Assembly: GCA_036172245.1 (NCBI GenBank)
Contig: JAYWIR010000078.1
Span: 124,001-188,000, forward strand
Direction of reading: 5' to 3'
DNA: 64,000 nucleotides
Source of the DNA: Raillietiella orientalis
Lineage: Eukaryota
Shown: in pieces, positions 18,801-56,983 of the stretch
Numbering within the stretch: the stretch's first letter is position 1
Layout: each line of letters starts with the position of its first letter
Made by a program: the position numbers and the translations under genes
The notes under the pieces: generated by a model
Told to the model about the DNA's origin: nothing
Seen by the model: the letters and a program-made list of their open reading frames with translations, nothing else
The model's database searches: none

Positions 18801-21800
18801 TAGTGTTCGTTTGACGCATTGCTAGTGGACCGAGCAAACCACGCTAGACGGAATGAGAGACTACCATCCAAAAGTTTGAATCATTTCTTCAATATTCCAA
18901 GGTATTGGCGGACGAATTACTCAAACACTAAGTGTTATTCCAATTTTCTATCCTTCCACTGATTTCACGGCCATGCATTCGAACTACTTAAATGCCCATT
19001 TTAAAACACTTTCGAGCTAAAAGACTACTTTCTATTTTGTGTTCTTGCTTGTCGAATAGCCTAGTAATAGAACGAAGGCAACTTAGGGGGAGAGAACAAA
19101 AAAAAAAAAAAGTATGCAAACATTTAGAGAGCGCTTGCAAGCAATCATGCATGACGGAATGCATCAGTGTTTCTAATACATCATTAAAAGTATGCTTTAG
19201 CTATATAAGCAATACGGGGTCTCAAAGTATGATAGACAATGAAAGCGTCAGGATAATTTTTCATAATCCATTGTGAAATCTGGGAACACTGCTTTATCAC
19301 CGTAGAAATAATATAAATAATTTTCGCATTACATAACGTCCATTGGTCATTAAAATACTTACGTACTGTTGAAACTGTAGTTTATCTTTGGGAATGCTGA
19401 AAGCTCTTGGAATAAAACTAAAATTGGATTCAGTAATAAGATTGAGTTTGTTTGTTATGTACCCTGAACCAGGGAAATGATTCACCTACAAATAGAATAT
19501 CAATGAGACTATTGTAAAAAAAGATGCTACTCATCATCAGAAATACATAAAACCATGTATACTCACTTTTTGCTGTGGAGAAAGATTTTTCAAATGCTTC
19601 ATCAAACTAAAGAAGGGGTACTCATGTGACCAAAGAACATTCCAGTTGGAATTCTCATCACCCACAATAAAACCCAAGCGCTCGAATACACCAATAACGT
19701 GATCTAGGTAGCCGCTGTTTATCTAGGATTAAAAGGTATGCATAAGCACTATTTTGCTGCTACTTTGAAATACTATTATGCAACTGTCACAGTCATTGGC
19801 AACTCAAAAATTCCAAAAAGGAAACGGAAAGAAAAAATGCTAAACTTTCGAAGCAAAGGAAAACAAAAGACTTTTTTTAAAACAAACAAAAAAAACGCTA
19901 TTGCTAGCACCACCACCAACAACAACAACAGAAAAGATCGAAACACAGCTGCTGAAAGTGTTTCACCGAATTACAAATATGTTCTTAGAACATTTTCCTA
20001 ACTTGACCACCGAATAAAACAAGAGAAATGATATGATTATTTTTCCTTTCGATTTTAAGCAATATATCCTTTCTTTGATCTTATGATTCCTGTGTTCCTG
20101 GATGTAATCTCAAGTGCATTGTTTTCTTCTTTGGATGTCTTGCAGCACACATGTATAGGCAAAAATCCACTATTTACGATAATGACGGCGGAATGATTTC
20201 ACTGAAGGCCTAAACTTTCGGTAAGGCATACCAAAACTCTTAAGTGTGAAAGTGTCCGTTGAAGAAATCAAATCCTCATACTGGTATTTACGAAATACGA
20301 GAGTGACTTCTTTCAAAGCCAATGTCGCATAAATTTCTGGTATTCCATACCCTCTAATCTCAGGTGAGGGTTTATCTGAAGTTTTGAATCCATACAAATG
20401 GGTTTGATAATCTAGGAATCTCGAATTTGATGACCGTAACCGGAATCTACTGTAGAGAAATGCTGCAAATGGATTTCGTTTTCTAGAAACTCAAGCTCTT
20501 CCTTAAGAAACAAAGGTCTTGCTGCCCACGATCAATCGGTTCATGAAAACAAGGCATCTGTGGCAAAACTTACTTAAAGCTTCGAATTATGTAAGGACAT
20601 TTCGAGAAATTTCAGAAATAGCACGGTGCTACTGGATGGAACGTGTTACTTTTGAATGGTGGCAACACAGTACGTTATGTCAATCACAGATTGCGATATT
20701 TGTGTGGAGCAATTTGCCCAAAATTACGAAAGTTTTGAAAAAGGTAAAGGAACTGGGGAAACTGCCTTTGGATAAGCGAACATTGGATAAGCAGTTGGAT
20801 CCGTGAAAACAATTCAGCATGCGAGCGTAATCATCAGTGGTTTTTGTGCTTTGATACGTTGCATGCACTTTTAGAAAACACGGACATTTCCATGACATTA
20901 CTAAAACGAACTGAACACATTTATGCAGGAGCCTAGGCATGTGTGTAAGATGTGCACGCATACACGAAGTATACTCAACAGGAGTCAACGTGCCACTTAT
21001 TATAGCCAGCATTTCCCTTTACGCTGCAACGTTGGATTTTCGTTCACTTCCTTTCTCCCCGAAGCAGAAATGTCCGTCTAGCTCCACATGCGTGCACATT
21101 TCGATCATTTCCCATTTACGGCAAAGATTGGTGCTACACCGAATCGTATGCTGCACCACCGATCCCGAGTCAGCTGCGCTTGCTTACTAGACGAGGGAGA
21201 TACAAACGGCCTCGGGAGACAACCGTTGGGATAATGCACGCTAGCCTGGGACAGGAAGGGCACACGCGCCGAGATACATTTACGTAACCAACGCAACGCC
21301 ATCGCTCGAGTTGCGTGGGCGCGCTCGAGGAGCTCGAGGGCACGCAAGCGGTGGCGTCCTTGAACCAGAGATGACCGACTAAAGAGGACTCGCCCCGATT
21401 AGTGGGGACTCGGGTCGTTGGGTCGACGCATCGCTCCGGTGTGACCAGAGCCCTCCACTTGCTCCCTTTAGCAAGACTTGGCTCGCTGATGTGCGCATTC
21501 CTACCGCTTGTCTGACCGAAGACGGTAGCGTCGCTTCGGAAACTTTCGCGCCCTCCGAGCCAAATTTACGGGAAAGGAAAACGGCATCAGGACCCTGGCA
21601 ACCAAACGAATTGCCGACCCCCCCCCCCCTCTCCCTTCCTGTGAATAGCGACAGGCCGTGTTCCGACAAATGTTCCCGACGTTCCCTTCAAAGGCAGCCG
21701 AACGCCCTGTCGCCTCTTGACATGCACATGGCTTGCGGGCAGAAGACACGCAGGTTTGCAAAAAGTATGCCAAAGGACGTGCTTTCTCGCGGACCAAGAG

Positions 21801-22112
21801 GACGGCTGAGGGAGTGCTCGCCCTCTGCCCCGCAATGGACCTGCAGCACGTCAAAAGCATCCAAAATTGACTCACTTTCTTGCCATGAATCCAGACCACC
21901 GGCGGACGCTTAGACAGCACCCTGCTTCTTATATCCATTAAATTCTGATCCATGCGGCTTAATTTGAGAACGCTGAACGCCAATGCCAAGATGCCGACCG
22001 TGAATATGAAGCCGGTGATCGCCCGGTGTCGGAACTGGCGAGGCATCGAGCGAAAAAAATGGCGCATCGCAACAGCACGTGAGAAGAGGCCGAGACGTGA
22101 AGTCGAAATCAT
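12883..22112 (-). CDS. Tubulin-tyrosine-ligase family (TTLL15-like) ATP-grasp protein with N-terminal transmembrane segment; 9 coding exons
   Basis: Exons 22112-21876, 19722-19567, 19485-19363, 14858-14629 and 13855-13692, then three exons within 13654-13042, then 12993-12883. Motifs: WNVLWSHEYPF, KVNHFPGSGYITNK, FIQEFVHNPFLIEGYKFDIGIYVIITSVNPLRVY, RFCPEKY, FFEMVRFDFLL, LLEVNMSPNLSSEHF, C-terminal WYLGKC. All junctions are GT-AG and in phase. The start codon is uncertain (22112, 22067, 22046 or an upstream exon). Confidence 0.88.
15333..15405. repeat. Tandem duplication, 39-bp period, about 2 copies (intronic)
   Basis: tataatacattcatttgaacata(t/c)aaggcatttt starts at 15333 and at 15372. Confidence 0.85.
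16104..16178. repeat. Short tandem repeat (cagaaat units and a 21-bp cagaaatcatccagtagaacg x2)
   Basis: Direct reading: the 21-mer is at 16130-16150 and 16151-16171. Confidence 0.85.
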
Positions 22113-23740
22113 CTTTGAGTTTCGGTTGCGACTACTCCCATGGTTGCCAGCCAGCCGCCCGTTCACCTGCGCTCTGGGTTCGTCACGTGACGAGTCGGAA
22201 ATTCCGCGTTCGCCGACGACGCGAGTCTGCGTGGGGATGCAGCAAGCGCCGGCGGTGCCGGGCAGATCGCTGCCTCAAAGGAAATGGCCTGCAATACTCC
22301 CTCCTCTCTCCCCTTTTCGCCGCCTCCTCCGCGCATCCTACCGGCCGGCCGGGAACTGGCCTGAGGGACCGCAGGACTGCCAAGCACTTCGCTTGGGGCG
22401 CCATGGTCTGCAGGGCGGATGGCCATGGAAGAGCACCACCTCCAGGCGATGGGGCGGGTGGGCAAGCCTGGTCCCGGCCCGGGGGTGCTGGGACGGAAAC
22501 CCCGCAGTGGGGCATCGCAGCTCGTCCCCTCCGCAAAGGCCCGTGGAAGATGCATGGGTGTGCAGGACGACGACGAATGGGGCGTGGTACTCCCTCCTCT
22601 CTCTTCCTCTCTCCCTTCCCCTTCCCCACACCCTCCCCACTTCCTTCCCCTTCCTTTGCTCCCACTTCCTCCTCACGAAGCGATAGGTATGTGGACGAGG
22701 CGTAGGGCGTGGGGTCGGTGTGCCCCGCTGCCCCCAAGGACCCCTGCTCAAGTGACGGCCTCCGAGGGGGGACTCGGGGGTTCGTTTGGATCCCCTCGCG
22801 TGTCCGGTGCTCCCGGCGATGGCTTGCGACGGCGGACGTTCCGAGAGGGCTGCTTGTGAAGGAGGGGTCGTCCGGGGGAAGCTGTGCGACATGTCCGGCG
22901 CGTGGAGAGGAGGAAGAGCTTTGGCGCCTGTGCAGAGGCGGAAGCGCACGACATCCGGATCGCCGGCAAGGGAGATGGACGATCGTGACGCCACTCCCAC
23001 GTCGGGAAGAAGGCAGGTGCTGGGCCTTGACCCTCTCGCAAACCCGCCAGGCTGGAAAGCGGGAGAGACGCTGCACTTCCGGCCCGCTTTCCAGCCAGGG
23101 AGACACGGATGTGACCCCTTGGCTACGGGTCTATCCTTCCGCTGAGGACGGAGTCTATCCTCACCTGGACCATCCATCGCCACCTAAACGTGAGGGCGCG
23201 TGTCTCAGCCACGGGATAGAGGAGGAGGAGTCGGCAGCCCAGCCCAGCGAGGCGTCTCGTGGGGATATGGGATCCCTCTCTGTCCTTGTTCCTCTTGCTG
23301 AGTAAACGAGACTGAATGTACGTATCCCAGTGCCCCCCGATCTCACTTGGCCCTTTCTCTCCCCCGTCAGCGTTGGCTGCTGCTGGCATTTCCGCTCCCC
23401 TTTCCTTCCTGTCTCTTCCTACCCCTCCTCCTCCTCCCTTTTCCGGAGCAGCGTCCGCGAAGCCCCGGGCCGTCCGGGGGAAGCGCGTCGGTCCCAACCT
23501 ACAGGGATGCCTCCGCTCCCAGGAAGTACGCCAACGTATCCCCACGTGAGGTGGGGTGATGGACCCGGAGGCAGCACTATGGTGACGTCACCGTCGTTTC
23601 TCCCCCCCCCCCTTCTTCCCCCGACCCCACGCTTCCTGGTCATCCCGCCTTCGCCTTCTTCCCGTCCTTATCTCCTCCCTCCCCACCCCCTCCATCCTCC
23701 CAGGATCACATGCATCTTTGTTCCTTTCTTTCTCTCTCTC

Positions 23741-23746
23741 TTTATT
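23741..23746 (-). terminator. Polyadenylation signal AATAAA of the cuticle-protein gene
   Basis: tttatt on + strand, about 120 nt downstream of the TGA at 23865. Confidence 0.55.
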
Positions 23747-23864
23747 TTTCGTAGGCGGCGAGAGTGACTTCGCTCCCGTTGACCGCACTCGACACTGCAC
23801 GCAGCGGGAGGAGGCGCCCTCTTTTCGCTGTGGGATTGGGCGGTGCATGGGCGTGCTCCCTGCC

Positions 23865-24871
23865 TCAGTGGTATCCGTGGGGCTGCAACAGGACACAGGG
23901 GTGGGGTCGATCAGGGACCGCGGTCCCTTCCCCATCCTCCTCCCTTCCGCCCGCGTACCTGACCGTTGACGTTGGCCCGGAACCCGCCGCCGTCGGCCGA
24001 GTACTTGACCACCCTCAGCGACCCGTCGGACTCCACCACGGTATATTCGCCGTCCACGTGGCCCGGGCCATGGCTCGTCTCGCGGCGCGTCTGCCTCTCT
24101 CCGCTGTAAGGGTCGGCGACGTCATAGCCGAAGTTGTAGCTGCCGTATCTCTGCATTTGGGAGAGGAAGGAAGTGGTGACGGAGGAAAATTCCTTGGCGC
24201 CCCGCCTCCTCCGCTGTGCTCACATTGTGGTCCTGGCTATGGTAGATGTGGCGCCGCGATCCGTGATGCGGCGGCCCGTGATGCGGAGGGCCATGATGCG
24301 GAGGACCGTAACCGTGGAAGCCGCCGTGAGCCGGAGGAAAGGCGAACTGGGAAAGGGCGGGGCCCACCATCATGGCGAGGGCAAGGACAGAGGCGATCCC
24401 TCGAAGTCCGCCGAAGGAGAATAACTGCGAGTCCGTGACCTAGAAGGGAGGGACCGAGGGAAAGGGGGAGAGGGAAGCCGAAAACGCTGCTGCGCCCCGC
24501 AGGTGCCCCCCCCCTTCTCCCTCCTCTCTTCGGTTCGGTCTCGGCCGGCCGTGGTGCTCTCCTGCACCATCTCGTCCTCAGAGGAAGAAGGAATTCTTGT
24601 GAGCGCAGGAACAGACCATCGTCGCCTTCCTCCCAGGTGCAGGCGTGAAGAGGAGCCGTCCTCGCAGACAAGAAGAGCAGTCTTTCCAACTTCCAGAGCA
24701 GCCCCCTTGTCGAAGCAAAGACACGACGGGCGACGGCAGAGCAGCCCCATCGGAAAGGAGGGACCGCGTTCCCCCCGAGACCCCCTTCCCCCGCCGCCCT
24801 TCCCTGCTCCTCCTCACAGAGCCTGAGGGGGCGTCCACCCACCCACCCGCGCGCCGCTTACTTACGGGCAT
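23865..24871 (-). CDS. Cuticular protein with Rebers-Riddiford (Chitin_bind_4) domain, signal peptide and His/Gly/Pro-rich repeats; 4 exons (24871-24866, 24439-24224, 24150-23959, 23882-23865)
   Basis: ATG CCC|gtaagt micro first exon. Hydrophobic GIASVLALAMMVGPALS signal. HHGPP-type repeats. R&R consensus YNFGYDVADPYSGERQTRRETSHGPGHVDGEYTVVESDGSLRVVKYSADGGGFRANV. Terminal exon PHGYH*. All junctions are phase 0 GT-AG. Confidence 0.88.
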
Positions 24872-24924
24872 GGCTGCGGACGGGGAGGAGGAAGCGCGCT
24901 GAGCCGCTCTCGGTCGACTCACGG

Positions 24925-24961
24925 AAACGAAGCCCTCGGACGGCTACCGCGCTCCTTTTAA
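24925..24961 (-). promoter_or_regulatory. Putative core promoter of cuticle-protein gene (TATA-like TTAAAAG about 30 nt upstream of a likely start site)
   Basis: TTAAAAG (24961-24955) is an isolated AT run in GC-rich DNA, about 85-90 nt upstream of the ATG at 24871. Confidence 0.45.
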
Positions 24962-26379
24962 GCGCCGTCGTGGAAGGTCGCCTCGCGGGCCTGCGGTCTC
25001 TCCTTCCCGGGGACGTGGCGCAAGAAGGAGCACGTGAAGCGTGAAACGTTCCCGGAGGCGGAGATCCGCTCGCCTCGTCCCTCGACCGCCTTCCCGGAAG
25101 CTGCCGCTCTGTGCGCCACGGGAACGACGGGGGAAGGAAAGAGGCGGCAAAAAGGGATGGTCACCCCCTTCGCGGGATGACCCAACCCTCTGCCCATCCC
25201 CTCCCCCTCTCACACCGCCACCACCAGCAGCTGCTGCCTTCTCCCTGCAGGACATCACACGGAAAGTTCTCATGGGAAGCGGGTCAAGCTCGTAGCCTCC
25301 TCTAGCTGAGATGACGAGTGGAGCGTCCGTCCCGGCAGCGCCCCATAACGTCTTATTGGTGGCTCGCGCCGAAGTCACGTGTCTTGGCGCTACCGCATGG
25401 AGACCTCACTGGCGCTCACTTTGACTTGAGCTTCAAAAGGGATCTCAATGACCGCTAACGGTGGGGAATTCGGTCCTCGGTTTGCTGCCGAAGGACCGTA
25501 CTGCAGGAGACCTTCCACTTGACCTGCGCGCTATGATTTGGGTCCTTCACGTTTTCGAGTGTATTGCATAGCCCGCCTATCATTTGCTCGACGAAGTGAC
25601 TGATGCACGCTGCTGCTCTAACAGCTTTGGTCACGTGACCATTTGCGCGTCCAGACGGCTTTTTGTCCCTCCCTTTTCCTTTTCTTTTGTGTGCGCGCGT
25701 CTAAGTCAGCGCTTCGATCGCGGAAGGACGTTGCTGGTGCCGCAACGCATCTCATGTGCGCTCCGGAAAAATCGAATGGTGCACGGAACACCGTTGCAAG
25801 CCAAGGCAACGAAAAACTGCCTTCTTCTTCAGCAGCTGCAGTGCAAAGTGCACTGTTTCCTTTTCCCTTGGTGGGGAATGCCAGACAAACGTGCTGTCTG
25901 ATCTGGCACCACTGAAAAAAAGAACCTGAAAGCCTTCATTTATGCTGACCAAGCAAACTGCGGATCGTTGGCATTTGATCTTTTGCCGCCGAACGAAAAG
26001 CGAATCAAGCAGCTTTGTTGCAAAACAGCCTCAGCATTGTTGGATGAGATGCACTCGTTTCGAAAGTCCAGGCATTTTATGCTTCGCTGCTGCTCCGCTA
26101 CCGCCTGCAAAATTGATGAGGCGTAAATTGCCATGACGATTATGGTAGGCACCCTCAGTTTTCTGCACCTATCACTGAAAATAAAGTTACACGTTTCAAG
26201 GCTTCACTCTTTTTTTCGACTTTTTCTTTCCTCTAACGACTTTCCCAGGTAATCTAGTGAGAGCCGACTTATTCGGAACATCATTCTGTAACCATGAGAC
26301 TACAATGAAAGTGAGAGCAAGAAAGTTCTTATGCTTCCCACAACATGGCAAGGATCTTGACAGCTAATGTCGTTAATGG

Positions 26380-26800
26380 TCCAAGCCATGATCCCGGCGA
26401 GGCCTGGTAGCACGGCTCAAGCGGGGTACACCGAAAACATTGGTAACTGGTGGCCTCCAATCGACGTATTCCGAGAATGGGCATAAGCCTGAAGTCTGAT
26501 CTGGTGCTCCTGGGTGGAAGAAAAAGTACTGGTTTTGGACGTCACCTGTCGCTACGAGCACTCCGCAACGACTGCAGAAGAGGCATAGGAAAAGAAGGGA
26601 AAGTATAGAGAGGATTGGTCGGCTCTCCACTTTTGCAAAGGCGTGCCCGAGACCGTGCGAACAGTCGTCGCAGACCTTTGGGATCTTGGAATCCAGAGGA
26701 CGACCAAGTATTCAGGGAATTAAAAGTGTCAAGAAACATGCAGGGGCGCATCAGAAAGGAAATACTGTGTCTCGAACACTGCATACTTCCAGGATGAGCA
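26380..26800 (+). mobile_element. Degenerate 3' fragment of a restriction-like-endonuclease (RLE) non-LTR retrotransposon, NeSL/Utopia-like
   Basis: Stitching frames gives LVARLKRG...W*LVASNRRIPRMGISLKSDLVL...EEKVLVLDVTCRYEHSATTAEEA*EKKGKY...PLGSWNPEDDQVFRELKVSRN. This matches the RLE layout L(K/R)PDLV...(V/I)DVT..(F/Y)E...K..KY and the NeSL/Utopia GxLGxWxPxN motif. It carries stops and frameshifts. Confidence 0.65.
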
Positions 26801-44420: not shown

Positions 44421-47221
44421 ATGACTGTTGAAGATGAAGTGAAGCGCAAAGCAGAAATTTTGAAAGCCCAAGCAAATGAATATTTTAAAAGTAGGAAAAG
44501 TTTGTATTTTCATACTTCTATTTGTTTTTAATTTTTGTTATTGTCCGGGATTTCATCTTTTTCATATGTGTCCAAGTGCATTCGATTGCCTGTCATTGAA
44601 TGAATTTTGTTTGTTGGCTTGTAATTAAAAGTCTAACAAATGTTTGCACAATCTATGTACTCACAAAACAGCAATGCTTATCATAAATTGGTTTGCTTAT
44701 GCTATGTGCAAGGATTATTTCTAAATATTATTGAATATATGCATGCAGGGAGTTTGATACTCAAGTATTGTCGATCATCGTGTAATGGTTGAAGTTTGTA
44801 TGCAGGCCTGGCCTCTCCACAAAAATCTCACGTTGTTTTGGATTTATTGCGATGAATTCTTTAATTCTGGATCTATTTGATGTTTGATGTGATTTCTGTT
44901 GTAAATTCTTTTACCGTGTTCCTATTGATTAGGATAATTATTGTTCTGCACACGTTTTCAAAGTGTTGTGACTATTTTAAAAATGAAGTAATTAAATACT
45001 TAGTGTCTCATTAGTGAAATGTTTGGTGTATGTATCCTGGAATCCTTTATTACAGCAACAGGATATGAATAGTTCGAGTTGTGTATTTTTTAAAAAAAAT
45101 AAAGTTTAAAGTAAGGTTTTGTCCCAATAGTGCAACCAGACATGGGACTACAACATGAACTATATTTTGATAAGATGCTGCTTGTATTGCAAATGTGAGC
45201 ATCACTGTAATGTTTCATGTAACATGAATGCTAATAGATAAGCTAATAGATTTTTAAAGCTTGTGTGTGGCTCATTATAAAAACAAGACTTGTGTTAAGT
45301 ACGAAAACATCTGTTCCAGTTTTACTTTGAAAGTTTTCACTATTTATGCATATAGTATCATGAATACATTTGATTGACTGATACTCTCTTTTTATTTGTT
45401 GAAGCTTTTGGAGAGTGCTTTGTTTCATGTCATTTTTTATAAGATTCAAGATTACTTTCAATCACCATTATGCATTATTAATCCAGGTTTGATGTAACTA
45501 ATATTTGCATTTTAGAAAATAATTATGTAGAAGCCATTAACCTCTATACTGAAGCGATCCAGCTGGATCCTTGTGATCCAGTCTATTATGGAAACCGAAG
45601 TTTTGCACATTTGCGAATGGAATCATTTGGCTCTGCTTTAGAAGATGCAACAAAATCTATAATGTTGGATAAGAAATACATCAAAGGATACTACAGAAGA
45701 GCTGCTGCCCTAATGTCCCTTGGGCGGGTTAAACAAGCTTTGAAAGATTATGAAGCGGTAATATAAAAGATTTTTTTTCCTCGACCTTGTTCGTATAGGT
45801 TTCTAAAGCACGTCCTTCTGATCTGGATGCTCGTCAGAAACATGCTGAATGTGAAAAGATTGTAAGAAGACTAGCATTCGAAAAAGCTATTGCTATTGAT
45901 GATAGGAAAATGTCAGTTGCTGATACAATTGATTTGGCTAGCATGGGTATGCATTTGAATTATGGTCGAAAAACGTTATACCTCGTATTAAGTTATTGAG
46001 GAAGATTATGAAGGACCACAACTGAATTCCGAAGGTAAGGTTACTGTGGAGTTTATGGAACAGCTGCAGGAACATTATCGAAATCAGAAAAAGTTGCATC
46101 ACAAATATGCTTATCAGGTGAAAATCTTACATATATAAAGTGATTATACCATAACAATGTTACAGATTTTATTGGATGTGAAAGCTTATTTTGAAAAACA
46201 ACCAACCCTGTTAGAAATAAATATGGAAAAAGACAGCAAATTCACAGTGTGTGGGGATATACATGGGCAGTTTTTTGATCTACTCAATATTTTCAAACTG
46301 AATGGAGTGCCCTCTGAAAAAAATCCTTATGTATCCTTTTGGAATAGGATATTTAATTTATTGCACCTTAGTTCTTTCATAGCTGTTTAATGGAGACTTT
46401 GTAGATAGAGGCTCATTTTCCGTGGAATGCATCTTTACTTTATTTGGTTACAAATTGCTTTATCCAGATCATTTTTTTATGGCACGTGGTAAGGACAGTC
46501 AAAGGATAATGCAAAATGATAATGTCTATAGGAAACCATGAAAGTCAAACCATGAATCAAATGTATGGATTTGAAGGTGAAGTACGAGCTAAATACACTG
46601 CTAGAATGGCAGAGTTATTCACTGAAGTCTACAACTGCTTGCCTCTTGCTCATCTAATTAGCAATCGCATTCTTGTAATGCATGGAGGGTTATTCTCAGA
46701 TGACAATGTAACTCTAGATAGCATACGCCAAGTTAATCGTTTTCAGCAACCACCTGAAGAAGGTAAAAATTTTTGTGCGGGTATCAGCATAAATCAATTT
46801 TCTAGGTATAATGTGTGAACTATTATGGTCGGATCCACAAGTACAAGAAGGAATTTCCCCAAGTAAACGAGGTGTAGGGATCCAATTTGGACCAGATGTT
46901 ACTGAGAAATTCCTGGCTAGAAATAATCTTGACTACATAATTCGCAGTCATGAAGTTAAAGCAGAAGGCTATGAAGTAGCACACAAGGGGAAATGTGTGA
47001 CTGTATTCTCTGCCCCTAACTACTGTGATAACATGGGCAACAAAGGTGCCTTTTTAACATTACGAGAAGGGGACTGGAAGCCAAATTTTGTTACATATGA
47101 AGCAGTGGTATGTATTAAATGACTAGTTAAGATATGCATTCTGCCATTTTTTTTTTTTAAGCCACATCCCAATGTTCAGCCAATGATGTATGTTAATCCC
47201 TTGTTACGTGTGTTTTCCTGA
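44421..47221 (+). CDS. PPP5C: Serine/threonine protein phosphatase 5 (TPR + PPP catalytic domain); 9 exons
   Basis: TPR motifs ([39 protein letters not shown]). Catalytic motifs [65 protein letters not shown]-terminal [11 protein letters not shown]. Confidence 0.97.
46331..46382 (+). other. U12-type (minor spliceosome) GT-AG intron in PPP5C, 52 nt
   Basis: The 5' site GTATCCTTTT is the U12 consensus. A branch-like CACCTTAG has its A at 46370, 12 nt from the 3' end. Removal joins [13 protein letters not shown] in frame. Confidence 0.85.
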
Positions 47222-47245
47222 CGATACAGGTTATTAATATATGTT

Positions 47246-47925
47246 TTATTTCCCGATCATTGTATTTATCTTTTCCATAACATCAGGGAGTAGTTCATTG
47301 CGATTGCCTCTTGTCACCTGAAATCAATCCAGAATCCATACACCAATTAGCATGCTTACTGTAAATACATAGCAGTCATTTCGGTCACGCAATGTCCTTA
47401 AAAAAGGTGTTATTCTGTTAGATATTGTTGCTACTAAAGGAACTCTGTTGGAATTGAAAATCTGTTGTATCTTCTGTTGGAAGGTCTTGCTCAATAACTC
47501 CATGCTGCCTATTTCATCTAATACAAATAGTGTCAGCATTTCTTCACTGTAATTTTCAAGCAATGGCATGACTAACTTCTCAAAGGACGAGACATCTACC
47601 ATATACTGACCAATACATGGCAACTGGGTATTCTTTTCTCTATAAAGGAAAGCTAATATTAAGTTACACAGCTGAATCAACCTGATTCGAGCAAGAACTC
47701 CATGGTCTCCATTTAAAGTGACTATGTCAAAACCAACACGTTTGGTTCTATCACGAACTTCTTCTGTATAAAACCCCTGTATTTTATATAGTGGGGTTTT
47801 GGATAGACTACTGACAATTTTTTTGATTAATGTGGTCTTGCCTACTCCTAAATTGAAACACATTGATGCAATTTAAAGGATAAAAAAAAATTACCAGGGT
47901 CTCCAGTTATTAATATATGTTGCAT
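47246..47925 (-). CDS. NTPCR: Cancer-related nucleoside triphosphatase (NTPCR/THEP1 family); 4 exons
   Basis: MQHILITGDP|GVGKTT (Walker A), IQGFYTEEVR, RVGFDIVTLNG..GVLAR, IGQYMVDVSSFE, LDEIGSMEL (Walker B), VTRGNRNEL; introns of 47, 42 and 42 nt. Confidence 0.93.
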
Positions 47926-47971
47926 CTTTACCTGCAATACATTCGGAAAAATGATTTGCATGCATTATATC

Positions 47972-47977
47972 TTTATT
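47972..47977 (-). terminator. AATAAA polyadenylation signal between the lines stop and the NTPCR start
   Basis: tttatt on + strand, 20 nt after the lines TAG; the first canonical AATAAA I find downstream of both the methyltransferase and lines ORFs. Confidence 0.6.
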
Positions 47978-47997
47978 GCAAACACTACCCATTCCCC

Positions 47998-49677
47998 CTA
48001 CTCATATAAATGCTCGCAGTGAGCAAGCAGCCGCAAGATTGGATCAATATTGTAAGGAAATAAATGTTTTTCAACCAAACGAGAAAGCAGCATTCGTAGG
48101 CGAATAAACAAACTCATAACAGAATCTAACTGAAAGGAACAGCTCGAACAAAACACTCTCCAGTTCCTTTTGATAAATTTAAGCAATTTTAGCACGAACA
48201 GTAAGAAACAAGTTTCATTGGATACCAACAAATCCAACAGCACATTTGCATCATAATCTATCATTGTTAAGAATTCACATAGGGCAGCTGTGGGGTTAGT
48301 GGCTTCTAGCAACCAGCTTGAATTATTTTGCATTTGCAAAGTAACATGGATGTCCAAAACACACACCAATGCTTCAACAAGGGCATCATCTTGGTCACCT
48401 AGTAATTTTACAATCCATTCAGCTAAAGGAAGTTGTGGGTGATAGGGAGCATGAGATTTGACATAAAGGTCAAGACGTTTAAGGCATTCACTTGCAATAC
48501 GCTCTAAACATGATACATCGAGCTCAGGTTCAGATCCTATTTCACTGCCTTCAGAACTGTCTTCACTCTCTCCACGTGTGTCTTTGCTTAGGACAGCTAT
48601 GGCTTTAATAACTAATAACACAAGTTTTTGTATGAGGGTGCTTGCACTCATTTTAGTACATAAATCATCTGATTGGTTAATGGGGATTTTCTGCAAAATA
48701 TTGCCTGCAGATGCTGAACGCAACAATGTCTGTGCAAAATGTAATGGCTCGTCTTCTACAGAATCCTGAAGAGCAAGTGTGCTACCATAACAGAGCAGTT
48801 CATTTGCCAATGTGAGAACTGCATTCCACAGAGCATCAGATGATTGCTGATCCAATGATTCAATCAATGTATCAATACAAAGCTGAAACTGGCGGGTGTC
48901 AACCACAGATAAATTTGTGCGAATGGCCACAAGTTGCTGCCATAAATGTATAAAAGACAGCAACCCACTTTCTAATGACGGATTAGCTGTAGCTATTTGA
49001 TTCAAAAACCAATGGAGAATTCCTGTCCAACGTATCTCTAATGCTTTTAAGATAATACACTTCAGATTGTTGATGCTTGTTGATATCTGTTCAGGATCTG
49101 CAGATGAAATGCAGCAGTTTTCGGGATGCTGATGATTTTCAGTGGGATGTGAATCATTATGCTGCCATTCCATCAATTTAGTAAGCACTTTGACTGAATG
49201 CTCCCATTCTCCAACATTCTGGGATACAGGTATTTGTGACAAAAGCATGCTAACGACATCTGCTGCCATCTGACTCTTATCTAATATCAACAAGTGAATC
49301 AAGGCATTGTGGGCACAGTATGATACTAATTGCACTTCAGATGAAAGCAGCAAAAGCAGCACATCCTTGATACCAGAATAAGAGCTATATAATATCTCGC
49401 ATAAATTTTTCAATTGAGAGCAAATAATGCCATGTTCCATTTGTAACTGTAGAGAACGACACAAAATATTAATCACACTACAGAAAAGTGCTTGGTGTTC
49501 ACAGCTGATAACAGTCTTTTTAAGCAAATTACAACATTGCTGAAACTCATCCAGGATTTTTTCTAGATCCACATTGCAAAGACACTGTGTTATTGCCTCA
49601 CTATACAATTTTTTAAGAAACTTATAACAGTGACTGTGGAGGGGGTCATATCTTGGCTTTTTGTTTTTAGGTGCCAT
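47998..49677 (-). CDS. lin: Protein lines homolog (Lines/LINS1), intronless, 559 aa
   Basis: Lines C-terminal domain: DQDDALVEALVCVLD, NPTAALCEFL, DANVLLDLLVSNETCFLLFVLKLLKFI..NW, LFIRLR...RLVEKHLFPYNIDPILRLLAHCEHLYE. Central LCYGSTLALQ motif. First ATG at 49677. Confidence 0.92.
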   Translation of the reverse strand: MAPKNKKPRYDPLHSHCYKFLKKLYSEAITQCLCNVDLEKILDEFQQCCNLLKKTVISCEHQALFCSVINILCRSLQLQMEHGIICSQLKNLCEILYSSYSGIKDVLLLLLSSEVQLVSYCAHNALIHLLILDKSQMAADVVSMLLSQIPVSQNVGEWEHSVKVLTKLMEWQHNDSHPTENHQHPENCCISSADPEQISTSINNLKCIILKALEIRWTGILHWFLNQIATANPSLESGLLSFIHLWQQLVAIRTNLSVVDTRQFQLCIDTLIESLDQQSSDALWNAVLTLANELLCYGSTLALQDSVEDEPLHFAQTLLRSASAGNILQKIPINQSDDLCTKMSASTLIQKLVLLVIKAIAVLSKDTRGESEDSSEGSEIGSEPELDVSCLERIASECLKRLDLYVKSHAPYHPQLPLAEWIVKLLGDQDDALVEALVCVLDIHVTLQMQNNSSWLLEATNPTAALCEFLTMIDYDANVLLDLLVSNETCFLLFVLKLLKFIKRNWRVFCSSCSFQLDSVMSLFIRLRMLLSRLVEKHLFPYNIDPILRLLAHCEHLYE

Positions 49678-52600
49678 TATCCTGGAGGCGCCAAACACTC
49701 ACATGATCAAATACTAACTTATGAATACGTTCAGTGTCAGGTTGAATCCAACTAAGTTCTACTTCTTGAATTAGCTGAAACTTGTTTGAAAGAATTTTTT
49801 TAAGTATGGAAAATGCCTGTGTGTCCTCACTGCGATCGTCTTTATAAGTTTCCAAACGATGTGACTGCAAAACAGGAAACATTACAAATATTAGTTTCCA
49901 TAAATTTACCTTTGGTATTAGTGTTTCATTCCAATAATAATCTGATGCGATCACAAGGATACCTCCGGAACACAGATACTGTGGAATTTTCTGTAGAAAT
50001 GCTTCTGGTTTCTGTAAGGATGTCAACACATCTGCTAGCAATATGCAGCCAAAATTACGAAATTGTCGTGGCAAATTTTGCAAATCTCCCTGATGAAAAG
50101 TTACTTTTTTGGCATCCTATGGATACCTATGTATAAAAACAAATGGCATGGCAACGTAGTCCTTACCATATGAAGCTCAAGTTTAGCAAGAAAGGATTTA
50201 GAAAAGCCTTCATTCTTATTTCCCAATGTAAAAGCTAAATAACCATACTGTTTTAATTGATTGCAAGCTGCAAGCATCCAATAACTTTGATCAACTCCAA
50301 CAACTTCTTTGAAATATGATGATAACTCAAAGCTGGTTCTTCCTGTTCCACATCCTGCATCCAATACTTTTCCAAGTAAATCTGGCTACAAGCATAGAAT
50401 CTATGTTCCTAGTTCTGAAGATACAATACAATGAACAACATGCATGCAAAATAAAATAATACTGAGAACCGCTTCAACCTGAACTCATCATATTTATAAC
50501 ATACTTCTAGTGTACAAAATGGTGAGTCATTATTCATTTCATCAACAACATAATTATGATACAGCAATAATGCACTATGTGTAGTGCTTTTAATTAGAAA
50601 AAATGCAAATCATCCAAATGAAATCAGTCTATGTGATAAAATTTTTGAAGTTCATGAATTAAAGATCAGATAAGGGGCTTGTAAGTGCAAACAAAAGGAA
50701 ACAAAACTCAGATCAGTGCTGACCATGATACGCACTTTATACACAATCATTTGTGTTGTTTCCTCAAATTTCAATTTTCATAGTGAACAATCAAAAAACA
50801 TCTTAAGAGACAAAAATAAAGCAAAATTAACTGTCTAGTCCATGAACTGGAGGCATTTCAGGATACAAACAAATCTTGGAATATTACAGGAAATGAAAGA
50901 TCACAACAGAAACCAATCACCTGGCACAAGCTAAAATCTCAAAGAATTGTTTCATTTCAAAATTTTGAATATGGTGCAACAATTTTTAAAAATAAAAGGG
51001 GAATCGCCATTTTCTTAATTTTGGTCAAGTTTGAGTTGAATTTCAATGATACTCCTGTTTTTTCTAATCTGATCTACCAAATGGAAATTTTGTAACACTG
51101 ATCAAAAAGCATTACTTAAACATAATAAAGTTCAGTTTGAATTGCATTTGCATAAAACAAGGGAGCCCTATAACTGAAAGAAACATGATGCAAAATTGAT
51201 GTTTCATTATTTTTATACATTATTATTCCAAAATGATCAAATGAATTTACACTAATGTGACCTCTCTCCCTTTCCCCAATGGGGCCCCAGTGGCAAGTAA
51301 GCTGCTTTCTTGCCACTGGGGTCCAGAATCACTTGAACTCTTGCAGGAACAAGCACCCTACATAACATCATCCCCCCCCCCCCCCACTGTAAGGAAAAAA
51401 TAAATGCTCTGGCTCAACTGGATGTCAAAGCTGCTAGTACTGTTGCATATAAACATTGAATATCTGTGGTATAAAAACACTTCATTCATGACTTCCTGAA
51501 TTTGAAATTCCCAATCATATTGCTCTCATCAACAATACAGAGTAATATATATACCAAAGAGGGATTTCTATAGATGCGACCCATTATGAATATTATCCTT
51601 CTAAGCATTCAGATTTGCATCCCTAGTTTTCCAATATCAAAAGAAAGCAAAAACAAAGACAGTACTTATTGCGAGAGTGGTTGTATTCATTATTATTAAA
51701 ATAAATCATGCAAACTTATTTTTTCTCCTTTAATTTAGCATTTTCTTTCTTCTGTGTACTCACAATGTCTAAAAATAAATCAACGCAAAAAAAAAAAAAT
51801 GAGCCTTCTATGCTTTCAATTTCTGTGTTTTTGTGTCAGAAAATGACTATTCTATATTCAACAAAAGCAATACACAAAAATGGCTTTTAAACAAACATTC
51901 TGAATTCAGCTACTTTGGAAGCTTAGAGATGTGAAAACCATGACACTGAATAACTTTATACATTGCTTACATACAATAAACATCAAATCTTAGTTGATTA
52001 GTTCAAAAGTTTCCTTACTGTCCTACAACACACAGAACACATAGCCTGCATATGATGTTCGCCAAAGGTATGAGTACAAACCAATGTTTGGATTTCAGAA
52101 ATGCAACAGAACAAAAAATACCACTGTGAGCTACATTTAATGTGTACATAGCAGTAAACTGCAAATGAGGAATGTGGGAACAAAGTGTGTACATGTAATC
52201 ACCAAAGACCTGAATAGAACTTGAAAAACAAAAAACCAAAAGAAAGAAAAAAGAAAAGCTTCCCATGATAAACATACCAAAACATACCACTAAAATTCAT
52301 GGAAGTTAATCCTGAAAAATTTAAAAGCACAAATCTTAATATAGTGGTAAAAGCAAAGCTTCTGTGTATAAGAATAAATTAGGTACCTTCTAATGGATTA
52401 ATAAATCCATATTGATAAATTAGTTTCCATGCAATTCTTTTCCAAGATAATTTCTATACAAGGAAAGGCTATATAAAGGTGACATGCACATTAACTTTAC
52501 ATTGCATATGCTTCAAAACATATTTAAGGATTATGTAATGTGATTGAAAAATGCATTTCATTGTACTTGGAGGAACTAAAGAATTTTATGTGATAATCCT

Positions 52601-53996
52601 GGAGTATACATTCAAGGACATAATACAGTATAATCAACAGATTGATATGAAAACACTTGCAGGAATACACAGAAAAAGACTAATGCAAAACTAGCTAGTA
52701 ATCATCATAATTGAATATCAAACACTGAAAATTATGAGTGTAAGAGTTCTCACTTTCAAATATTGAGGCAAATTATAATGAATGGTTATGATGAACTTAC
52801 CATAACTGTTCATCAGATATGATCAACATAATCAAATCAAACTATAATGAATTACGACGACTCATTCAATATTCAGCTCAGAAGTTAAGAAAAAATCCCA
52901 CACATGAACTGTGCTGAATATTAACACAAAGAGTATTAAAAGTGTCCAAATTGGAACCCATCCCATTCCTCATTGTGAAAGATCTGAACAAAATTTCCAA
53001 GGAGTCTTTCTGAAATATCTGCAGAATGAGTGGAAATAAGATCATGTGATCCTCTATATCAAAGTATTATTTGTACCAGCATATAAAAATTCCAATTTAG
53101 TTTGGATTTTTCCAATTTATCACATAAAAAATTCATTATTTTGATGCAAAAAGTGTACCATTCAAATTTCTACAAAGACTATCCAATGTTCATGCTTCTT
53201 AAAGATAACATCTTCACCAATATGTGAAATAAATCAGTACAAACATCACACTCAATGTTAATGAAATTTAATCATTCAAGTGTGCTTTGTTCTCAACTTA
53301 AAATTTTTTATTCCAATTTTCTAAAAGCTTTCATACATTGGAAATAAAGTTTCTGTTTCCCTGATGACCCCCATGCACATACTTTCAACCAAAAATAATC
53401 ACTCAATCAAGAAACAGGTGTTGAAACTGAAGACACGAAAAACTGTTTCAATTGGAATTCACGAGACTCACATGAACACTAACCAACGTTGTAGTAGTGA
53501 CAATTTATTTTTTAAAGTTGATGATCACAGTGAAAAAACAAACAAACAAACAAGATTATTAATGTTTATCCAATTATATAAAATACTGCTTATAAGCCGC
53601 AATCAAGAAAAATGCACAGTGCTATTTAGAGTCAATAACAATCAACATCTGCACAAGTAATTCAAAATAACAAAGCTCTCAAACTATGTACTCAAATCTT
53701 AAGTTCACTGAACTTACATTATTTTCACAATGTTTCCAGCATAGATCTGCAAGACTTTTATGATAATTAAAAAATGATGAAGGTAAATCTTTCAAATGCA
53801 CAAATTCGGCTTTCAAATTAATATAATGAGAAAGCAAATGTTTTTTGACAACAATGTCATCTTCATAGACATTTAGGACTTGATTCTTCCAGATATTGTA
53901 TAATTTGTAGAATGAATATGAAACAACACCTGCACTTACAATAGTAACTGAATACAGAAGCGGTGTTCTATGTTCTTGCCAAAAATGCAAATTCAT
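49667..53996 (-). CDS. Stand-alone class I SAM methyltransferase resembling the OvoA C-terminal (mercaptohistidine N-methyltransferase) domain, with N-terminal hydrophobic anchor; 4 exons (53996-53718, 50385-50167, 50116-49910, 49864-49667), 300 aa
   Basis: Motifs NVYEDDIVVKKHLLSHY, SLADLC, VLDAGCGTGRTSFELSSYFKEVVGVDQS, KVTFHQGDLQNL, KPEAFL..I...L.SGGILVIASDYYW, LKKILS..FQLI and DTERIHK...VSVWR. These follow the OvoA methyltransferase pattern (NxYE...Y..FHY, LDxGCxxGRxSFEL, FxQGDAxNL, GGxLVxxSPYTW, ETxRK...TxW). All junctions are phase 0 GT-AG. Confidence 0.8.
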
Positions 53997-56264
53997 AATT
54001 TTAAACTCATTGGCAGCATTTCACTAAGGTATGAACCACTGTCGCTGTTCGGAAAGAATGTCTGAAAGTATAAACATTTTTCTTACATATACGTTCCTAT
54101 GTACAAAACAGTAAAATTAAATCAAAAGGAATATACGGGAATTATGACTCATACGAAGAATAAGAAATCCATTAGGTAGTAAATTATTAAAATGACATGA
54201 AAAACTGTTAATGTGGCACTAATATAAAACACATTCAGCTCTGTATAGTTTTCAAGAACACACTATTTTTAAATTTTTTGCAAAAAAACATAAATGACAC
54301 ATAGCAAAATCTTCGTGATCTCCCATAACAATGTAGCAAAGAAAATGCCATGTTGTTGTTTCTCTATTTCTAACAAGGAGCGAATGTAAATTCGTTTGCT
54401 GTTCCCGTAGGAGTTTTACTGAAAAATGAAATTCAGAAATACCAAGTTCCCAAGCAGCAACAAAAGTACGAACACTGGTTTTGCTGACCGAAAATCCTTA
54501 GATTTTATCACATGATCTTAGATTATTATTCGAAAAGAGTAAGCTACTGAGATTCAAAATTACATATAAAGTAAGTTTGGAAAAATCTTTTCGAGGAAAA
54601 CAGGAATTCTCAAATTCATGGAACTTGAAAGTTTTTAGACCTTGAAATTGAGATATTTAATCCACAAATCAGATTATGGCGACTCATATAAAAGCAGGAA
54701 TGATGGAAAACAACAATAAATGTGAATTATACAAGAAAATGATGATCTATAGTTGAATGTGCATACTAAGAATACTCAAAAATGAGAACTTGTTTTGAAA
54801 ATTTCTGACAAAGCATAAAAGTCAGGTAGATGAAAAAGATAAATTCTTGACTATGCATTGATTTCAGTGTTCCAAGAATAAATATAACAATCAGGTCATA
54901 AATGCAGAATCAAAATGCAAGAATCGGTTATGTGTGAACTGCTCTAAGTTTTCAACTAGCAATAATTACGCCTCCGCAAGCGCCCTCGGCTATAATATTG
55001 CCCGTCTGAAATTAAAGTCATACAATTTTAGAATTTTTTGCCAATAATGGAACTAATACTGCATAATTTTCTTTTTTTTCCATTCTATGAAGTGCAGCCA
55101 AATTTGTGTTTTATGAGAAACTGACGATTAAAGGATATGGTTTGTAATTGTTCCGATGACAATGAATCTCATTTTGCATCCATACTTTCTAGGATTCAAA
55201 ACATACACAAGTCTGAATAAAAAAAACCCTATGAAATAGAAAACACATTGTATTGGAACCAACAACACTTCTCTAGACATTAACAAAAGGATGCCAGTTG
55301 GGGAGAGAGAATAAAAATACTGTCGAATGTTTTGAAGATTTTCAAAATATTCCACTGTCATTTAGACTTCATTTTTATGAATGACAAATTGTACTACAGC
55401 AATCCTATTCGGAAATCTGAACCTTTTCCAGAAATTAATAAGGTAAAACATGTGTACAAATGCAATTTAAATTCGACTCTTGGTAGTCTTTTTATTCGAG
55501 TCTCTATTTGTTGTTTGAGAAAAGCCTTAAAAACAGTCTATTTCTTCGAAGCAAATTATTTCTATTTACTGATCTTGGGCTTATGAATGCAAGCACGATT
55601 GTTCCGAATATTTTTTATCTGCGAACATCTGGGTAGATTGGAAAATTTCCAAGCTGCAGAATAATTTGTTTTTTCTGACTCTACTAATAGTTTTCTTTTT
55701 TCCGTGCTTTTCTAAGAACTCAGGAGTTTACTTATTCCACACGTACTGAAATAAAGTATTATGTGTTGTTTCCTAGTTTACGGTACTTTACAGTTATATG
55801 CTCATATAGACAAAATAATTTACGGTTTCGGAGGATTTCTGTACTTTTTTTTTTGATGAAATAGTTCATTTATTTTTCTACATCACATAATAAGTGGGAA
55901 ATTCATAACTGTGGAATTAAACACATTGGAATATGTCCAAGTTTTCGAAATTTACTATGTAAAAAACTCAGTCGACTACCTGCTCGAAAGGAAACCCGTT
56001 CCAGCATCAAGTTTTTCTTAAAATTCCATCCATTTTAAAAAGAATATTAAGCTAAATATTTTTCCTGATTGTTTGAGAATATAAAATGAAAACTTACAAG
56101 CAAATTATTTCGAAGTCGTGTGTGTTATTATATAAGCATATCTAAAGTGGCATATTAAACGTGCATGAGTTGGGAATGGAATTATGAAAGCGAGAGCTGA
56201 GGTGAACGTTTAAACGGAGGAGGTAGGAAAAAAGTGACCGTGTGAGGCAGGTTTCAAGCAAAAA

Positions 56265-56983
56265 ATGTGCAGTGATGATGGCCCTGGATTCGTGGGAATT
56301 AGGTTTTGTCAGGAATGGTGAGTATACTTGCTTCTAAATTTGAATTGTACTTCAATATTGAATTTCTTGTTTTAGCAATAATATGCTGTATCCTAAAGAA
56401 GATAAAGAAAATAAAGTACTGTTATATGCCGTAAGTTTAGAAATTTTCTCCAGTTCTTTTATTTCTCCAATTTGATTTATTATCATTGTTTCATACATTT
56501 TTCTTGTTCCCTCTATCAACGATTGTCTATATGTGGGTGCAAATATACATATGTAGTTGACCATCTGGAGCACATTTTTGATGTTCTCCATCATATATGT
56601 GTGTTTTTTTTTTTCAGTGCAGAAATTGTGATTATAAGCAAATAGCTGATAATAATTGTATCTATGTGAACAAGTTGATGCATGAGGTTGAGTAAGTTTT
56701 TTTTTTTTTTAAAAAAAAAAACTTTTAAATGTTTTGTATTTTGTTATAGTGAATTAACGCAAATTGTGTCTGATGTTATATCAGATCCTACTTTACCCAG
56801 AACAGAAGATCACAATTGTCCCAAATGTGGTCATCGTGAAGCTGTGTTCTTTCAGGCTCAAAGCCGCCGTGCTGAGGTACTGAAACAAACCATCAATTTT
56901 ATCTTAGTTCTCTTAATTAGGAAGAAATGAGGCTTTATTATGTATGTACAAATCCTCACTGCACCCATCGTTGGACAGAATGA
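56265..56983 (+). CDS. POLR2I: DNA-directed RNA polymerase II subunit RPB9; 5 exons (56265-56317, 56376-56430, 56618-56691, 56750-56876, 56921-56983)
   Basis: [37 protein letters not shown]...[51 protein letters not shown]. Confidence 0.97.

Follow-up and report, generated by a model that had tools for sequence, protein, structure and literature searches.

The MTase, lines and NTPCR genes

Three protein-coding genes lie head to tail on the minus strand of a 64,000-nt stretch of contig JAYWIR010000078.1 (positions 124,001 to 188,000 of the forward strand; hereafter the window, in whose own coordinates all positions are given). In the direction of transcription they are a methyltransferase gene of the OvoA C-terminal type (MTase), lines and NTPCR. 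An initial annotation of this DNA had taken them to be three unrelated, intact genes and had proposed that a single primary transcript yields all three proteins. Every coordinate on which that description relied was confirmed in the sequence, as were the 11-nt overlap of MTase with lines and the 72-nt gap between lines and NTPCR. The other Pfam-recognised genes of the window have kilobases between them, and the spacing of MTase, lines and NTPCR is clearly non-random.

The four exons of MTase splice into an uninterrupted 301-aa open reading frame (ORF). Exon 1 (53718..53996) opens with the ATG at 53996-53994 and holds 93 codons, followed by a GTAAGT donor; intron 1 (50386..53717) is 3332 nt long. 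Exon 2 (50167..50385) encodes the S-adenosylmethionine (SAM) motif LDAGCGTG and matches the families Methyltransf_25/31/11/12. Exon 3 (49910..50116) and exon 4 (49667..49864) follow, and the latter ends with the stop TAA at 49669-49667. Against the NCBIfam model TIGR04345 (ovoA_Cterm), the scores were 53.1 bits for exon 2 and 83 bits for exons 3-4 translated across the 45-nt intron; the curated cut-off of 170 bits refers to the whole protein, and the fragments were scored separately. The spliced protein aligned with 300-aa shark proteins over 286 aa (33%, E 3e-54), starting at residue 18-19, and with 295-aa prawn proteins over 289 aa (31%, E 2e-43), and its C-terminus falls 4-7 residues from the ends of the homologs. 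Since the alignment to these stand-alone animal homologs of ~300 aa spans their full length, the four-exon model is complete, with its C-terminus at the normal place. The overlap with lines therefore reflects packing and not an extension of the MTase ORF. A HMMER search over representatives with MTase gave 209 matches, and in a word-index protein search with exons 3-4 at longer lengths none of 189 candidates was retained at E ≤ 0.001.

The lines coding sequence (CDS; 47998..49677) is a single exon of 559 aa, with the ATG at 49677-49675 and the stop TAG at 48000-47998. Both domains of the protein are recognised by Pfam models (LINES_N, E 1.7e-55, 189.2 bits, gathering 25; LINES_C, E 3.1e-14, 52.5 bits, gathering 27). 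It shares at most 39% identity with any protein in the collection, where the top matches are insects and crustaceans. The ATG is taken as the true start because P3 and K6 are nearly invariant in the lines alignment; an N-terminal extension was ruled out by the in-frame stop at 49701-49699. The NTPCR gene (47246..47925) has exons at 47895-47925, 47682-47847, 47360-47639 and 47246-47317, and its spliced ORF of 182 aa matches NTPase_1 (PF03266, E 1.9e-36, 125.9 bits, gathering 23.9). Its Walker A loop, GDPGVGKTT, crosses the exon 1/2 junction.

The MTase stop TAA lies 8 nt beyond the lines ATG, which gives the 11-nt overlap (49667..49677, ATGGCACCTAA). The spacer between lines and NTPCR (47926..47997) contains, in order, an AATAAA (47977-47972), a TATA-like ATATAAT (47970-47964), an initiator (Inr)-like TCATTT (47954-47949) and an AG at 47933-47932, together with four ATGs. 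This AATAAA is well placed, 21 nt past the lines stop and ahead of the NTPCR ATG. The minus strand from 56350 to 47150 has six AATAAA hexamers, at 55874, 55496, 53509, 53312, 47977 and 47250; those at 53509 and 53312 fall in MTase intron 1, and the last (47250-47245) overlaps the NTPCR stop (47248-47246). From the MTase stop to the end of lines there is no AATAAA and a sole ATTAAA, at 48609 inside lines, and the ~470 nt past the MTase stop are free of 11 common hexamer variants. In view of this lack of an early hexamer, the MTase mRNA would carry at least ~1 kb of the lines ORF, and most simply all of it. Upstream ATGs number 16 in the MTase CDS and 45 in lines ahead of NTPCR, besides the four of the spacer. 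Leaky scanning was considered for lines and is excluded by the 16 AUGs ahead of its own.

Some further features were seen in MTase and just ahead of it. An 8-codon upstream ORF (uORF) with two ATGs lies at 54019-53993 on the minus strand, and its stop TGA overlaps the MTase start codon (ATGA), an arrangement typical of reinitiation control. Exon 4 also contains, shortly ahead of the lines ATG, a donor-like consensus in phase 0, GTGAGT (49702-49697, minus strand). Its frame matches that of the AG preceding NTPCR (..CAT/GTA AAG ATG..): if 1771 nt with the entire lines ORF were spliced out, MTase and NTPCR would be joined in frame; no such fusion architecture was found among the 150 MTase matches listed, as judged by length and match position alone. 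At ~51285-51325 (minus strand), intron 1 contains a hairpin with a perfect stem of 13 bp (CCCCAGUGGCAAG / CUUGCCACUGGGG) and, next to it, a G12 run. Folded over 96 nt, it gives z = -3.1; miRNA precursors typically have a longer stem, and the Rfam match to mir-26 reached only E 0.98.

Other lines loci and the placement of the source

Metagenome contigs were scanned with the lines alignment, and 37 loci were obtained. A first tblastn search for the neighbours, at E ≤ 1e-3, found neither MTase nor NTPCR at any of them. When the search was rerun with word size 2 and E ≤ 5, MTase was detected upstream of lines and on the same strand in two loci, L002 and L020. Synteny in related genomes, which the initial annotation had suggested as a check, holds for MTase-lines in 2 of the 12 loci whose sequence extends 1 kb or more upstream of the inferred start of lines. 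It fails for lines-NTPCR: none of the 20 loci that extend 1 kb or more downstream has NTPCR after lines.

In L002, four MTase exons (284-1568) precede the lines ATG (1794) on the same strand, and the spacer of 225 nt holds three AUGs. In L020, four MTase exons (1595-4398) are followed on the same strand by the lines ATG at 4418, with a spacer of 19 nt. Exons 2 and 3 of both copies match TIGR04345 (E 1.7e-07 to 9.6e-11), and the two MTases are 35-44% identical to each other. The L002 lines protein is 56% identical to that of the springtail Orchesella dallaii over 813 columns, and L020 lines has, by eye, the same N-terminal signature. In all three loci (the window, L002 and L020), no AATAAA or ATTAAA separates the MTase stop from the lines ATG. 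When exons of the springtail MTases were used to search 12 loci at still more relaxed settings, nothing credible came up.

At the position of the SAM motif the springtail-like copies read VFGSRTGY and VIGIKTGS (L002 749-800 and L020 2680-2730, respectively), compared with LDAGCGTGR in the window. The GxGxG pattern appears degenerate, and these copies may be inactive enzymes kept beside lines. In another locus, L009, an ORF at 234-1553 on the minus strand, EF 1-gamma-like by eye, overlaps the start of an intronless lines ORF (1404-3623, plus strand), which could mean either a head-to-head arrangement or a chimera of the assembly.

The source of the window was placed with two proteins. In a quick maximum-likelihood tree of 37 lines proteins, the window sequence lies outside the fully supported insect clade, on a very long branch. 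The second protein is encoded by PP5, whose last exon (47162..47221, plus strand; stop TGA 47219-47221) converges on NTPCR, the two stop codons being 24 nt apart on opposite strands. PP5 was assembled from nine exons (483 aa) and compared in a tree of 41 PP5 proteins. Here the window sequence falls within the pancrustacean group (Shimodaira-Hasegawa-like approximate likelihood ratio test 91), outside the insect, springtail, branchiopod and malacostracan clades, as sister (99) to one single protein. Taken together, the lines and PP5 trees indicate that the source is a non-insect pancrustacean. An ESM Atlas search with lines led no further than Arthropoda. In the ~680 nt scanned past its stop, PP5 is without AATAAA or ATTAAA, with only an AATATA at 47236, and the 3′ untranslated regions (UTRs) of PP5 and NTPCR must run over each other's last exon.

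Elsewhere in the window, a G+C island at ~21000-26500 (61-64% vs. 30-40% elsewhere) has long ORFs in all six frames and one short tandem repeat only (24261-24309). An insertion, a repeat or an assembly chimera are candidate natures for it. None of seven six-frame ORFs (six from the island and one 298-aa low-complexity ORF) matched Pfam.

Expression of the cluster

The reading that we prefer, and to which as a whole we give about an even chance, is that the cluster consists of locally compacted housekeeping-type genes: a conserved MTase-lines pair and a separate NTPCR, with no spliced leader (SL) needed. Because the pair recurs with tiny spacers and with no poly(A) signal between its members, a shared dicistronic transcript is suggested. 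MTase and lines form a conserved pair, which is probably co-transcribed as a structurally dicistronic mRNA. The MTase transcript, having no polyadenylation signal of its own, would run through the lines ORF and end at the AATAAA 21 nt past the lines stop. Lines could be produced (i) from a shorter, co-terminal transcript whose start would lie within MTase, intron 1 at 3.3 kb being large enough for it, and which may have a 5′-UTR intron ending at the AG 49683-49682; or (ii) from the dicistronic mRNA itself, by termination-reinitiation or internal initiation at the overlapping AUGGCACCUAA. With the poly(A) signal of lines ahead of it, NTPCR would be expressed from a separate mRNA, whose start would fall within the final tens of nucleotides of the spacer or in the 3′-terminal part of lines. 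The lines-NTPCR adjacency is most likely a lineage-specific compaction. Of the earlier proposal that one transcript gives three proteins, the part that concerns MTase and lines stays plausible, given the pair in 2/12 loci and the lack of AATAAA and ATTAAA between them, and the part that concerns NTPCR is not borne out, given the AATAAA in the spacer and the adjacency in 0/20 loci.

Several observations count against a conserved, co-transcribed pair. MTase was not found upstream of lines in 10 of the 12 loci (L003, L004, L008, L009, L016, L019, L022, L023, L035 and L036); the only two comparator loci that show the pair are both springtail-like, and their MTases have weak similarity to that of the window (tblastn E 1e-4 to 1e-3). 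The absence of AATAAA from the 1.7 kb of the lines CDS is not significant (~1.0 per kb expected, P(0) ~0.17), and the ATTAAA at 48609 or a non-canonical signal could terminate MTase mRNAs within lines. Co-transcription, transcript ends and start sites are all things that we infer. Finally, the two AG sites that lie 4 and 6 nt before the lines and NTPCR ATGs would be better explained by a splicing-based mechanism; their joint chance of ~0.7%, if they are independent and as calculated post hoc, is suggestive, no more.

Three independent monocistronic units with overlapping ends are an unlikely alternative. Here MTase would end early in the lines CDS at a weak or non-canonical signal, for which the ATTAAA inside lines is a candidate. 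The lines and NTPCR promoters would be embedded in the gene upstream, and the adjacency in springtail-like genomes would reflect shared regulatory DNA instead of a shared transcript. The initial annotation had seen no room for internal promoters, which is wrong as stated: at 3332 nt, MTase intron 1 could house a lines promoter or a 5′ exon. The 225-nt spacer of L002 could hold a promoter too, and TATA-like and Inr-like motifs are present in the 72-nt spacer. The convergence of PP5 and NTPCR shows that independent genes can lie this close; as these two cannot share an operon, the region tolerates overlapping UTRs generally. With the 19-nt spacer of L020 and the overlap in the window, however, the MTase 3′ UTR would cover at least 1 kb of lines whatever the signal, and a tandem order conserved with minimal spacing is the pattern of co-transcribed pairs.

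The remaining alternatives, with one exception, depend on splice acceptors. The initial annotation had noted an acceptor-like site before each ORF, and all three AGs are where it put them, on the minus strand: tatactttcag (54062..54072; AG 54063-54062; 9/12 pyrimidines) upstream of MTase; cgcctccag (49682..49690; AG 49683-49682; 8/12 pyrimidines) inside MTase exon 4, 4 nt before the lines ATG; and gtattgcag (47932..47940; AG 47933-47932; 6/12 pyrimidines), 6 nt before the NTPCR ATG. They are not compelling. The first can be read equally well as an Inr-like TCAGAC preceded, 28 nt upstream, by a TATA-like TATATG, and the letters of the third as a donor-like CAG/GTAAAG. The acceptors of the 14 verified introns (eight in PP5, three in MTase and three in NTPCR) are themselves degenerate, with 9 TAG, 3 CAG and 2 AAG and with 5-12 pyrimidines in the 12 preceding bases. 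On the minus strand, YAG with at least 6/12 pyrimidines occurs 15.6 times per kb; such a YAG stands 0-8 nt upstream of 189 of 1430 ATGs (13%), and one of the quality of the lines site (at least 8/12) upstream of 71 of 1430 (5%). Because such motifs are frequent (~16 per kb) and real acceptors are degenerate, the acceptor-like sites are weak evidence. Among the verified introns, 12/14 measure 41-54 nt and 2/14 exceed 1 kb. For an arthropod, introns of 41-54 nt are an unusually short class; their pyrimidine tracts are weak, and most of their acceptors are TAG.

An SL trans-spliced operon, which we regard as improbable, would have one promoter upstream of MTase and a tricistronic pre-mRNA, with the SL added at the AGs at 54062, 49682 and 47932 and coupled to 3′-end formation of the gene upstream. 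Same-strand genes at very short distances (-11 nt and 72 nt) fit such a unit. So does the anatomy between lines and NTPCR, where the AATAAA is followed ~40 nt later by an AG and, 6 nt further, by the ATG, and where splicing at 47932 would remove all four spacer ATGs. All three sites are CAG, a minority type among the cis-acceptors (3/14), and the organism lies outside the insects, SL trans-splicing being known in copepods and amphipods (PMC7986045, in excerpt). The order of signals at MTase and lines is an obstacle: the putative lines acceptor lies upstream of the MTase stop, so both mRNAs cannot come from one pre-mRNA, and no MTase 3′-end signal precedes that acceptor or, among the 11 hexamers, follows the stop within ~470 nt. 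The MTase-lines pair is moreover conserved in springtail-like genomes, and L002 shows no conserved AG near the lines ATG. We know of no report of SL trans-splicing in springtails, and no paper on it was found in the searched literature (PMC and bioRxiv). The frequency of acceptor-like motifs also speaks against the operon, as does the lack of an SL RNA family match in the 64 kb of the window. More generally, tight packing and an AG before an ATG, in an AT-rich genome with degenerate splice sites, should not be taken as evidence of trans-splicing.

Slightly less probable still is a true operon of a non-insect pancrustacean (e.g. copepod-like), whose primary transcript would come from the promoter region shared with the divergent neighbour RPB9 and would be SL trans-spliced at the CAGs 4 and 6 nt before the lines and NTPCR starts. 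If correct, it would be the first operon described in an arthropod.

A shared non-coding leader ranks lower again and is very improbable. It would be a first exon near 56.1 kb, in a bidirectional promoter region shared with the gene upstream, spliced alternatively to 54062, 49682 and 47932. That divergent neighbour has an exon at 56679..56927 on the plus strand with a TFIIS-type zinc ribbon (PF01096, E 6.3e-08), which we take to be RPB9 from a motif recognised by eye. The gtaagt reported at 56097 is indeed present (GTAAGT, 56092..56097, minus strand) and is a candidate donor for the hypothetical leader exon by consensus alone; a GTAAGT by itself is weak evidence. The first ATG past the acceptor is the gene start for both lines and NTPCR, and the low joint chance of the two close AG sites also favours a leader. 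For MTase, however, the 8-codon uORF intervenes between the 54062 site and the ATG, and the NTPCR adjacency is not conserved. The leader would need introns of 2, 6.4 and 8.2 kb, compared with 41-54 nt for most verified introns. The leader intron would enclose a U4 small nuclear RNA (snRNA)-like element (54881..55015, minus strand; Rfam RF00015, 50.3 bits vs. gathering 46), which lies on the same strand between MTase and the RPB9-like gene. In this element the U4/U6 stem I region is well conserved; the first ~19 nt deviate, the 3′ stems are poor and the Sm site reads AUUUAUG instead of AAUUUUUG as in the model. It may be a pseudogene or a divergent copy.

A mature tricistronic mRNA, with three proteins made from one molecule via reinitiation or internal entry, is hardly credible: FlyBase annotates seven tricistronic loci in Drosophila melanogaster and the spacings here are within the reported range (PMC4528330, in excerpt), but the well-placed AATAAA lies between lines and NTPCR, the 45 ATGs of lines and the four of the spacer precede NTPCR, and the NTPCR adjacency is not conserved.

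Comparison with known systems

The kind of arrangement proposed here for MTase and lines is known from arthropod dicistronic and overlapping pairs. An MTase-lines pair conserved across springtail-like genomes and another pancrustacean lineage is new to the literature searched (PMC and bioRxiv), in which we found nothing on this pair and nothing on arthropod operons. If the two genes are co-transcribed, (i) they would be a dicistronic locus that has persisted since springtails and another pancrustacean lineage diverged; (ii) they would provide a natural system for the translation of a 559-codon ORF downstream of a 301-codon ORF in an animal mRNA; and (iii) they would tie an ovothiol-type methyltransferase, whose function in animals is unknown, to Lines, a developmental regulator.

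Termination-reinitiation at an overlapping stop and start is used by caliciviruses and influenza B. The UAAUG of a hypovirus is a further such site (PMC2699510, in excerpt). The MTase stop likewise lies within a few nucleotides of the lines AUG (AUGGCACCUAA), and in L020 the distance is 19 nt. Unlike the viral sites, the window shows to the eye no UGGGA-type motif within the ~130 nt leading up to the lines AUG, and the L002 spacer measures 225 nt with three AUGs.

At the cholinergic locus, VAChT and ChAT share a first exon. One promoter and leader exon could in the same way serve several coding units by alternative splicing here, but a U4-like gene and 2 kb separate the proposed leader from the first coding exon.

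Nematode and tunicate SL operons resemble the cluster in their head-to-tail genes and tiny intercistronic regions, and the passage from lines to NTPCR, with its AATAAA, ~40 nt and an AG just before the ATG, is of this type. They differ from it at MTase and lines, whose coding regions overlap here, with the putative acceptor inside the upstream CDS. Among arthropods, SL trans-splicing is regarded as absent from insects; it occurs in copepods and amphipods, where operons are unreported (PMC7986045, in excerpt).

The FlyBase annotation of D. melanogaster includes 159 dicistronic pairs along with 7 tricistronic and 2 tetracistronic sets (PMC4528330, in excerpt), so that the description of such loci as rare in insects understated their number. 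Loci whose transcripts are all polycistronic have stop-to-start distances of -34 to 319 nt, overlaps in different frames are mostly shorter than 40 nt, and monocistronic alternatives often arise from internal promoters (PMC4528330, in excerpt). The MTase-lines pair was not found in the supplement files of this source that were searched (file 1 being outside the search), and "lin" occurs there only as an author name. The locus in the window is unlike the fly loci in the AATAAA between lines and NTPCR and in belonging to a non-insect organism in which it is known from sequence alone. It is like them in combining unrelated genes of one strand and, for MTase and lines, in having no intervening poly(A) signal (3/3 loci); the distances of -11 and 72 nt in the window, 19 nt in L020 and 225 nt in L002 all fall within the fly range.

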